From Ruditapes philippinarum (taxonomy: Eukaryota), in NCBI RefSeq assembly GCF_026571515.1, contig NW_026862606.1, positions 124,001-188,000 on the forward strand: a stretch of 64,000 nt of DNA. Reading direction: 5' to 3'. Made by a program: the position numbers and the translations under genes. Position 1 is the stretch's first letter. Each line of letters begins with the position of its first letter. The notes under the pieces are model-generated. The model was not told where the DNA came from. It ran no database searches and was given only the letters and a program-made list of their open reading frames with translations. Shown in pieces: positions 22,682-23,317 of the stretch.

Positions 22682-23317
22682 ATGAACGCCGGACTCCTTT
22701 TTGTCGCATTTCTTGCTGCTTCAACGCATGCGTTCTCTATTCACTCCGGGAATGTTGAGGAGAAACTCCGTCTTCTGAATCCTTCATTTATGATGATGGA
22801 ACAATTGTTCAATCTCCAAGATGAAACACAATGCATCGAGAAACTTTTCTGTCTTATGGAAACTGAGATGGCCGGAGAAACTGAAAATCCTCTTAAGCAT
22901 TACTCAAGATTCCTGACAAACCTCTACCAAGAAATCGAACCATTGGCATTTGAAAAGGTTAAAGGTCTCCTTGCAAAATATCCACACATTTCAAAGGTCA
23001 TTGACGCCATTGCCTTTGGTCAGAGCAGCAACAGCGAGGCATGCAATGTGAAGTATGAGGAATGCCCAAACGAGAAGAGCGAGCTAGTTTCCTTTGCCAA
23101 GATGCTCGGAGATAATGTTGTAAACAAACACATGCCAGGCTTCTTAGCAAAACGAGGAGACCCAGTGTGCACTGGTGCTGGAGTTAGCTGCGGTTTAATT
23201 GGAGGTGGTTGCGCTGTTTGTACCGTTGTCACAGAGGGTTTGTGTGGTATTTTATGTGGACCGGAAGTGGCTGCTGCCTGTTCTGGAGCTGGTCTTGGTT
23301 GTGCTGTTAAAGGTTGA
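22682..23317 (+). CDS. Secreted precursor: signal peptide + DM4/DM12-like domain + KR + 8-Cys Gly-rich peptide
   Basis: Intact 211-aa ORF, more GC-rich than its flanks, with ACCATG start context. Hydrophobic signal MNAGLLFVAFLAASTHA; pattern CIEKLFC...AIAFG...C...Y..C; dibasic KR; terminal Gly. Upstream splice acceptor and AATAAA at 23340. Confidence 0.9.
   Translation: MNAGLLFVAFLAASTHAFSIHSGNVEEKLRLLNPSFMMMEQLFNLQDETQCIEKLFCLMETEMAGETENPLKHYSRFLTNLYQEIEPLAFEKVKGLLAKYPHISKVIDAIAFGQSSNSEACNVKYEECPNEKSELVSFAKMLGDNVVNKHMPGFLAKRGDPVCTGAGVSCGLIGGGCAVCTVVTEGLCGILCGPEVAAACSGAGLGCAVKG

Follow-up and report, generated by a model that had tools for sequence, protein, structure and literature searches.

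Bivalve precursors, probably secreted, with a predicted hydrophobic eight-cysteine peptide and a pro-domain homologous to the mussel shell protein MUSP-1

This work concerns a 64,000-nucleotide stretch of the Ruditapes philippinarum genome (contig NW_026862606.1, positions 124,001 to 188,000 of the forward strand; hereafter the window) and, within it, a 211-residue open reading frame at 22682–23317 on the forward strand, whose translation is as given in the original prediction, made from the letters of this stretch. The reading frame is a real, expressed, spliced and polyadenylated gene. As read from the sequences, its product belongs to a family of fixed layout, in which a signal-like N-terminus is followed by a helical four-Cys pro-domain, a dibasic site and a hydrophobic eight-Cys peptide. 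Sequence comparison makes the clam pro-domain a homologue of the mussel shell protein MUSP-1, with the same four Cys residues. The reading that we favour, tentatively and with slightly less than even confidence, is that the clam peptide, cut at Lys-Arg (KR) and amidated, inserts into membranes as a means of defence and has its pro-domain as an escort.

A contig of the RNA run X7 matches 22675–23215 without a single mismatch and, across a GT..AG intron, connects 22675 back to 21473; the short side of this joint comprises 24 letters, below the 30 deemed safe. The poly(A) tails are non-templated, as the genome at 23360 and 23362 is not A-rich. The window copy or a near copy was seen in all four contig runs (X7, X11, X13 and X14), with the sequence of a neighbouring copy over the coding region in X11 and X13 and near copies in X14, and the contig word depth was about 2000 in X13 and X14; X11, X13 and X14 are taken as RNA by guess only, and the tissues of the runs are not given. 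No reads over the peptide exon region were found in the four raw-read RNA runs, sampled at 4–12%, of which X24 had no read anywhere on the stretch and hence is no test. Expression of the clam gene looks on/off. Besides, about 700 short contigs of X7 with adapter-like loose ends pile up at 23174–23507, the 3' end, where the summed word depth exceeds 100,000, compared with 82 in the gene body. X7 seems to be a 3'-tag library in which the clam transcript is very abundant, and depth is a poor measure there.

The precursor had been called an orphan, which did not hold: a search of 1.84 billion representatives returned 22 matches at E ≤ 0.001, one of them spurious, and relatives are annotated as mytilin-1/MUSP-1. 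The spurious match, P0032 (E 1e-3), is repetitive and was kept out of the alignments. All named relatives are bivalve (Ruditapes, Mercenaria, three species of Mytilus, Saccostrea and Dreissena), the others being unnamed. The full eight-Cys pattern C-x6-C-x6-C-x2-C-x7(9)-C-x3-C-x6/7-C-x5/6-C is present in 43 of the 52 stored proteins, with C-x6-C-x6-C-x2-C-x7-C-x3-C-x7-C-x6-C as the clam framework; the remaining nine are shorter, diverge after six Cys or have no tail, and one of them is the spurious match. A profile of the peptide alone found 12 proteins, all of 193–229 residues, among the 7994 scored, and the two that were new both bear the same pro-domain; this search was word-based and is weak evidence of absence elsewhere.

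A dibasic pair lies at most 16 residues before the first peptide Cys in 39 of the 43 homologues, and the linker at this site varies among them in length and sequence. P0052, P0021 and P0027 have no dibasic pair, and P0045 has a basic cluster about 25 residues further upstream. The terminus is G, GK or GR in 23/43, and close clam copies alternate between these three ends, as expected where basic residues are trimmed and the Gly is turned into an amide. The clam protein thus combines a signal peptide judged by eye, a conserved dibasic site and a Gly or Gly-basic end, the features of a convertase and amidation precursor, and release of the peptide by processing, taken alone, appears highly probable from these sequences. 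The layout put forward in the original prediction, including KR, the positions of the eight tail Cys and the amidation-type terminal Gly, has been upheld, as has expression. That the peptide stays unreleased, as the C-terminal membrane anchor of a single secreted protein or as its tail for binding lipid or metal, is improbable in our view. Cleavage is predicted from sequence, the four members without a nearby dibasic site would suit a retained tail, the model helices (below) are of transmembrane length, and the VIA overlays fit the peptide model to membrane hairpins as well as to soluble ones. Nevertheless, the dibasic pair is kept despite a widely varying linker, and the alternation of G, GK and GR is what amidation predicts.

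The tail encoded by 23156–23314 comprises 53 residues with Cys at 5, 12, 19, 22, 30, 34, 42 and 49, a side-chain charge of −2 and a grand average of hydropathy (GRAVY) of 1.12, in line with the hydrophobic and anionic character first claimed for it. All eight Cys are invariant in 19/19 and in 36/36 aligned rows, which were picked for carrying a peptide. Only the Cys and small residues are conserved in the peptide, and Gly, Ala and Ser together account for 26–52% of 19 peptides. It had been described as having a near-mirror Cys spacing and two ends that repeat each other. The likeness of the ends is a direct repeat, shared family-wide by the outermost C-x6-C segments (mean BLOSUM 7.7 forward), and not a mirror (−2.4 reversed); the null for the direct repeat is −1.9 ± 1.1 and none of 2000 shuffles reaches 7.7, a significance that is overstated because the 32 sequences compared are related. 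Of the two proposed glycine zippers, G9-G13-G17 lacks conservation, with a small residue at position 17 in 26% of 19 rows, and the second fared better, with a small residue at G44 in 89% and at G48 in 84%.

AlphaFold predicted for the peptide alone (36 sequences) a helix at 3–25, a three-residue turn and a helix at 29–52, with a mean predicted local distance difference test score (pLDDT) of 77 and a predicted template modelling score of 0.43. In this model, Cys 5, 12, 19 and 22 step by 7, 7 and 3 along one helix face and Cys 30, 34, 42 and 49 by 4, 8 and 7 along the returning one. Both are hydrophobic on every side, with low moments (0.13 and 0.14) and high mean hydrophobicity (0.56 and 0.46), and their 23–24 residues each are enough to span a bilayer. 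Extra Cys come in pairs, with one member on the N-terminal and one on the C-terminal side of the core, in nine of the 43 proteins, never singly, and are lacking in 34; these nine may trace to just one or two independent events. Being always paired, one per end, the extra Cys fit a nested ladder with an added outer rung. The helical hairpin of the original prediction is therefore matched by the model, its disulfide ladder gains indirect backing, and a hairpin with nested disulfides 22–30, 19–34, 12–42 and 5–49 seems likely on these grounds. For the full precursor (46 sequences), the model shows a helical pro-domain, at pLDDT 55–89 per block over model residues 1–130.

In the mechanism that we favour, the precursor would be secreted and processed by cleavage at KR and amidation. 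The 52-residue peptide set free in this way, predicted to be a disulfide-stapled hydrophobic hairpin, would partition into foreign membranes as a defence, with bacteria, fungi, borers or foulers as conceivable targets. Pro-domains serve as escorts in other hydrophobic peptides, and by analogy the acidic helical pro-domain may hold the insoluble peptide in its fold and prevent it from doing harm during secretion. After cleavage it would be a soluble leftover, caught in the nacre of mussels, which would explain the presence of a mussel relative there. The putative defence function is the weak step, because the peptide is non-cationic. We counted in its favour the five gene copies with three recent duplicates, the faster peptide change within this trio, and the on/off expression.

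The genome search gave six matches at five loci in the clam genome, namely the window copy, a copy 65 kb off on the same contig (95%), a copy on contig C579 (94%) and two distant ones (54% and 38%), and the database name of the clam proteins is 'uncharacterized protein'. The three close copies are 81–87% identical over a shared 3–4 kb that takes in the intron and exon 1; flanks of this similarity indicate true duplicates, and assembly haplotigs were ruled out on the same ground. In this assembly the C579 copy (L003:1431-2070, G000) carries a frameshift near codon 30 and a premature stop inside the peptide; an uninterrupted protein of this type exists as a separate record, P0006. Given the intact P0006, the C579 copy could represent a pseudogene allele, or the assembly could be in error. 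Within the trio, with P0006 standing in for the C579 copy at the protein level, the non-Cys peptide residues are 81–86% identical compared with 97–99% in the pro-domain (Fisher p 0.003–0.006, the pairs not being independent), and the corresponding values for P0020 and P0042 are 64% and 98%. Between the window copy and its neighbour, the nonsynonymous and synonymous proportions (pN and pS) are 0.012 and 0.080 in the pro-domain and 0.063 and 0.117 in the peptide. Sequence divergence of this kind shows relaxed or mildly diversifying change in the peptide, not positive selection.

On/off expression would also suit a signalling peptide that addresses a receptor of the clam as a hormone, as a neuropeptide or as a pheromone carried in water. 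KR cleavage and amidation are the usual peptide-hormone route, and helical disulfide hairpins are known among mollusc pheromones (attractin). However, a peptide with a GRAVY of about 1.1 and no polar face is ill-suited to water or haemolymph, no receptor-binding motif is evident where Cys and small residues alone are conserved, and the copies diverge within the peptide, so that we give this explanation only a small chance, marginally below that of the unreleased tail. The defence peptide remains our preferred reading.

The shell link of the family was overlooked in the original prediction and raises a rival function. Four Mytilus members (P0015, P0028, P0046 and P0049) are named 'Mytilin-1' or 'mytilin-1-like'. 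The label is common to these proteins and to the unrelated antimicrobial mytilins, and is a likely source of wrong immune annotation. P0046 is extended at its C-terminus by a piece that has a basic pair at the 11th position and ends in Gly. P86853 is MUSP-1 (Mytilus uncharacterised shell protein), and the available text of PMC3896809 describes the MUSPs as yet to be characterised. In M. galloprovincialis, MUSP-1 is listed from nacre only, in the acid-soluble, urea-soluble and insoluble fractions (PMC4517812, Table 1), and the sequence printed in the accessible part of that paper has 181 residues with its end marked undetermined. This printed sequence is colinear, without gaps, with residues 1–181 of P0028, at 37 mismatches counted by eye (about 80% identity). 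Past residue 181, P0028 continues with RQKR and then a 10-Cys peptide, and the MUSP-1 record, as printed, stops just N-terminal of the R-x-K-R site of its relatives. The window protein (P0001) matches P0028 at E 4.7e-10 in the library search and at 29% identity over the full length (E 4e-25) pairwise, and P0028 searched against the clam genome found only the five family loci. The colinearity with P0028, together with the alignment of P0028 to the clam protein, indicates that the known shell protein MUSP-1 corresponds to the pro-domain. A tree built from 34 of the 52 proteins, with MUSP-1 represented by close relatives and not by itself, joins the clam copies to Mercenaria (98/94) and leaves them apart from the 10-Cys clade of Mytilus (100/99, long branch); its deep nodes are weak. 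By sequence, the clam gene is a distant paralogue of MUSP-1, with no sign of orthology in this tree.

All MUSP-1 peptides from mass spectrometry in the accessible part of PMC4517812 lie within the pro-domain, which says nothing about the C-terminal peptide, as the database entry was without the tail. One of them (score 68), which ends at the last recorded residue without K or R, was considered as evidence of cleavage and trimming and was rejected, because two other peptides in that part of the table are printed without their final R and the missing residue is perhaps typographic; one such peptide appears elsewhere in the same table with R and the same score.

The family may alternatively encode shell or periostracum matrix precursors, in which the acidic pro-domain would do the work in the shell and the Gly/Ala-rich hydrophobic hairpin, whether released or kept, would serve the organic matrix as a self-assembling, surface-active or cross-linked piece. 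We consider this, the chief rival, rather unlikely, even with the nacre location of MUSP-1, the Gly, Ala and Ser content of the peptides, and the place of M. coruscus shell mytilin-1 among the strongest matches in three shell pull-downs. The latter protein was pulled down with three baits and is given no feature beyond a signal peptide in the text available (PMC7530383, PMC7141649, PMC7573561), and recovery by three different baits fits an abundant, sticky protein. One of these papers calls it Mytilus-specific in the portion seen, which the clam and oyster relatives contradict. Moreover, the clam gene lies outside the Mytilus MUSP-1-like clade, a second M. edulis member, P0015, is closer to the clam protein (E 6e-33 vs 5e-10 for P0028), and the accessible text on the Perna shell proteome mentions mytilin-3/MUSP-3 and no mytilin-1 (PMC6641155); MUSP-3 is also the concern of PMC9077915 as far as its text was available. 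Eight invariant Cys and amidation-type ends would suit a discrete bioactive product better than filler.

Several observations weigh against a processed, amidated defence peptide. Twenty of the 43 members are without an amidation signal and four without a nearby dibasic site. The pLDDT of the peptide falls below 50 within the model of the full precursor. Across 19 peptides the charge runs from −4 to +2, that is, neutral to anionic, and the peptide is not amphipathic; typical mollusc antimicrobial peptides differ from it in both respects. Faster change of the non-Cys peptide residues is confined to four of 14 close pairs, three of them from the one clam trio, and is not seen in the other ten, while a peptide pN/pS of about 0.54 with conservative substitutions gives no positive selection. 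Finally, the protein-level data on the family come, in the sources available to us, solely from shell (M. galloprovincialis nacre and the three M. coruscus pull-downs).

A still wider reading, which we regard as doubtful, is that of an undescribed, bivalve-wide group of non-cationic, fully hydrophobic, laddered transmembrane-hairpin defence peptides with a chaperone fold of their own, MUSP-1 being the discarded or re-used pro-domain; if true, it would tie peptide defence to shell secretion. MUSP-1 gains an anatomy that is unmentioned in the available text of the MUSP papers cited, as it resembles a peptide precursor of which only the front half is recorded. The family adds to bivalve peptide biology a Cys framework and a pro-domain without Pfam or PDB match, and it exposes a naming trap, for the database 'Mytilin-1' here is not an antimicrobial mytilin. 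If membrane-active, the peptide would be an unusual scaffold, being neutral or anionic, and would come from a species of major importance in aquaculture.

Table 1. Features of the clam gene (positions in the window)
Feature	Position	Strand	Remarks
TATA-like box	21419..21427	+	31 nt 5' of the earliest transcribed base observed; role inferred from sequence
Non-coding exon 1 (part only)	21450..21473	+	24 letters of contig X7-2 joined to 22675; true 5' end may differ
5'-untranslated-region intron, 1201 nt, GTAAGT...AG	21474..22674	+	joint 21473->22675 in one contig of one run
Predicted signal peptide, residues 1–17	22682..22732	+	hydrophobic run ending T-H-A, judged by eye; homologue N-termini alike
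Pro-domain, residues 18–156	22733..23149	+	all-alpha in the model; Cys51/57/121/128; isoelectric point 5.1; homologous to MUSP-1
KR, predicted convertase site, residues 157–158	23150..23155	+	dibasic pair kept in 39/43 homologues
Predicted mature 52-residue peptide, 8 Cys, ~4.6 kDa	23156..23311	+	helix 3–25 / turn / helix 29–52 in the model
Terminal Gly, predicted amide donor	23312..23314	+	G/GK/GR ends in 23/43 homologues; stop 23315–23317 next
AATAAA (23340–23345) and poly(A) sites after 23360 and 23362	23340..23362	+	seen as loose A tails (1 and 3 X7 contigs)

The remainder of the window offers no functional context, as its 12 other stop-to-stop frames of at least 130 residues are mostly transposon remnants by eye. 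We take the 997-residue frame at 14498–17491 on the reverse strand, which encloses an N stretch at 16473–16635, to be a reverse transcriptase of the long interspersed nuclear element (LINE) type, and the frames at 8106–8588, 9852–10316, 48487–49365 and 53951–55054 to be LINE-like fragments. Three adjoining frames at 38323–40189 on the forward strand, by eye integrase-like, low-complexity and with an OTU-protease-like motif, are presumably one decayed element, and a 154-residue frame at 43534–43998 on the reverse strand is presumably BTB/KCTD domain-like, again by eye. Upstream of the gene, 20398–20543 forms an inverted repeat with 61-nucleotide arms that are 80% complementary, where reads fit partly, and is likely a small dispersed element; a similar repeat at 19500–19650 is heavily read.

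Pfam gave no match over the cut-off for the window protein, for 31 members at E ≤ 1, for 30 members at E ≤ 3 or for 19 peptides at E ≤ 5, and no family of antimicrobial mytilins, myticins, defensins, big defensins or macins appeared in these sets, as the original prediction had expected. Nor is the peptide of the cationic cysteine-stabilised alpha-beta kind, given its charge of −2 and a strand-free model. NCBIfam and PDB sequence searches returned nothing over the cut-off for either part, and Foldseek nothing at E ≤ 0.001 for precursor or peptide. The best VIA matches were the C-terminal helical domains of glutathione S-transferases for the precursor (Z 4.5, root-mean-square deviation 3.0–3.5, about 77 residues aligned) and generic hairpins for the peptide (Z 7.4, 1.8, 53 aligned), which on these models are common arrangements only and assign no fold. 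No paper describing the peptide or the precursor layout was found in the open full-text literature, a coverage that leaves out most subscription papers, the shell-proteome studies of Mytilus and of this clam from 2011, and part of the PMC3896809 supplements.

The DM4/DM12 domain (PF07841), to which the pro-domain had been likened, is likewise a four-Cys helical domain, but family members score below its cut-off of 22 bits: two of 30 reach 10–11 bits (E 0.61 and 1.1), P0030 lying in register with model positions 15–86, and the window protein has no match. The TIGR04450 model of halocin C8-like bacteriocin precursors gave 13.5–15.9 bits (E 0.0075–0.042, cut-off 27) over its C-terminal part with three of 25 members, all Mytilus, and none with the clam protein or with any of 19 peptides alone. 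Genome searches with both models gave no match and are uninformative, their controls being equally silent. Halocin C8 and the Gram-positive C8-like immunity/bacteriocin fusions likewise place a hydrophobic Cys-rich peptide behind an N-terminal domain, a likeness that is best taken as an analogy of layout and not as evidence of kinship. The nearest known relative in the pro-domain is the Mytilus nacre protein MUSP-1 (P86853, AKI87978), with the same four Cys as the clam protein; its record describes no peptide, whereas its close relatives bear a 10-Cys peptide without a terminal Gly, one of them with an extension ending in Gly.

Two antiparallel helices with nested disulfides also characterise nemertean neurotoxin B-IV and the sublancin-type glycocins, which are cationic or glycosylated and come from other precursors; neither was found in the PDB sequence or fold searches. 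In the BRICHOS-domain peptides of polychaetes and in the cathelicidins, a signal, a folded acidic pro-domain and a convertase site precede a C-terminal Cys peptide, and the clam precursor is laid out alike. It differs from them in having no BRICHOS or cathelin match and in its hydrophobic, non-cationic peptide with a predicted helical hairpin. Precursors that pair a pro-domain with a Cys peptide are of a kind already known, whereas this Cys framework and its tie to MUSP-1 appear to be undescribed.
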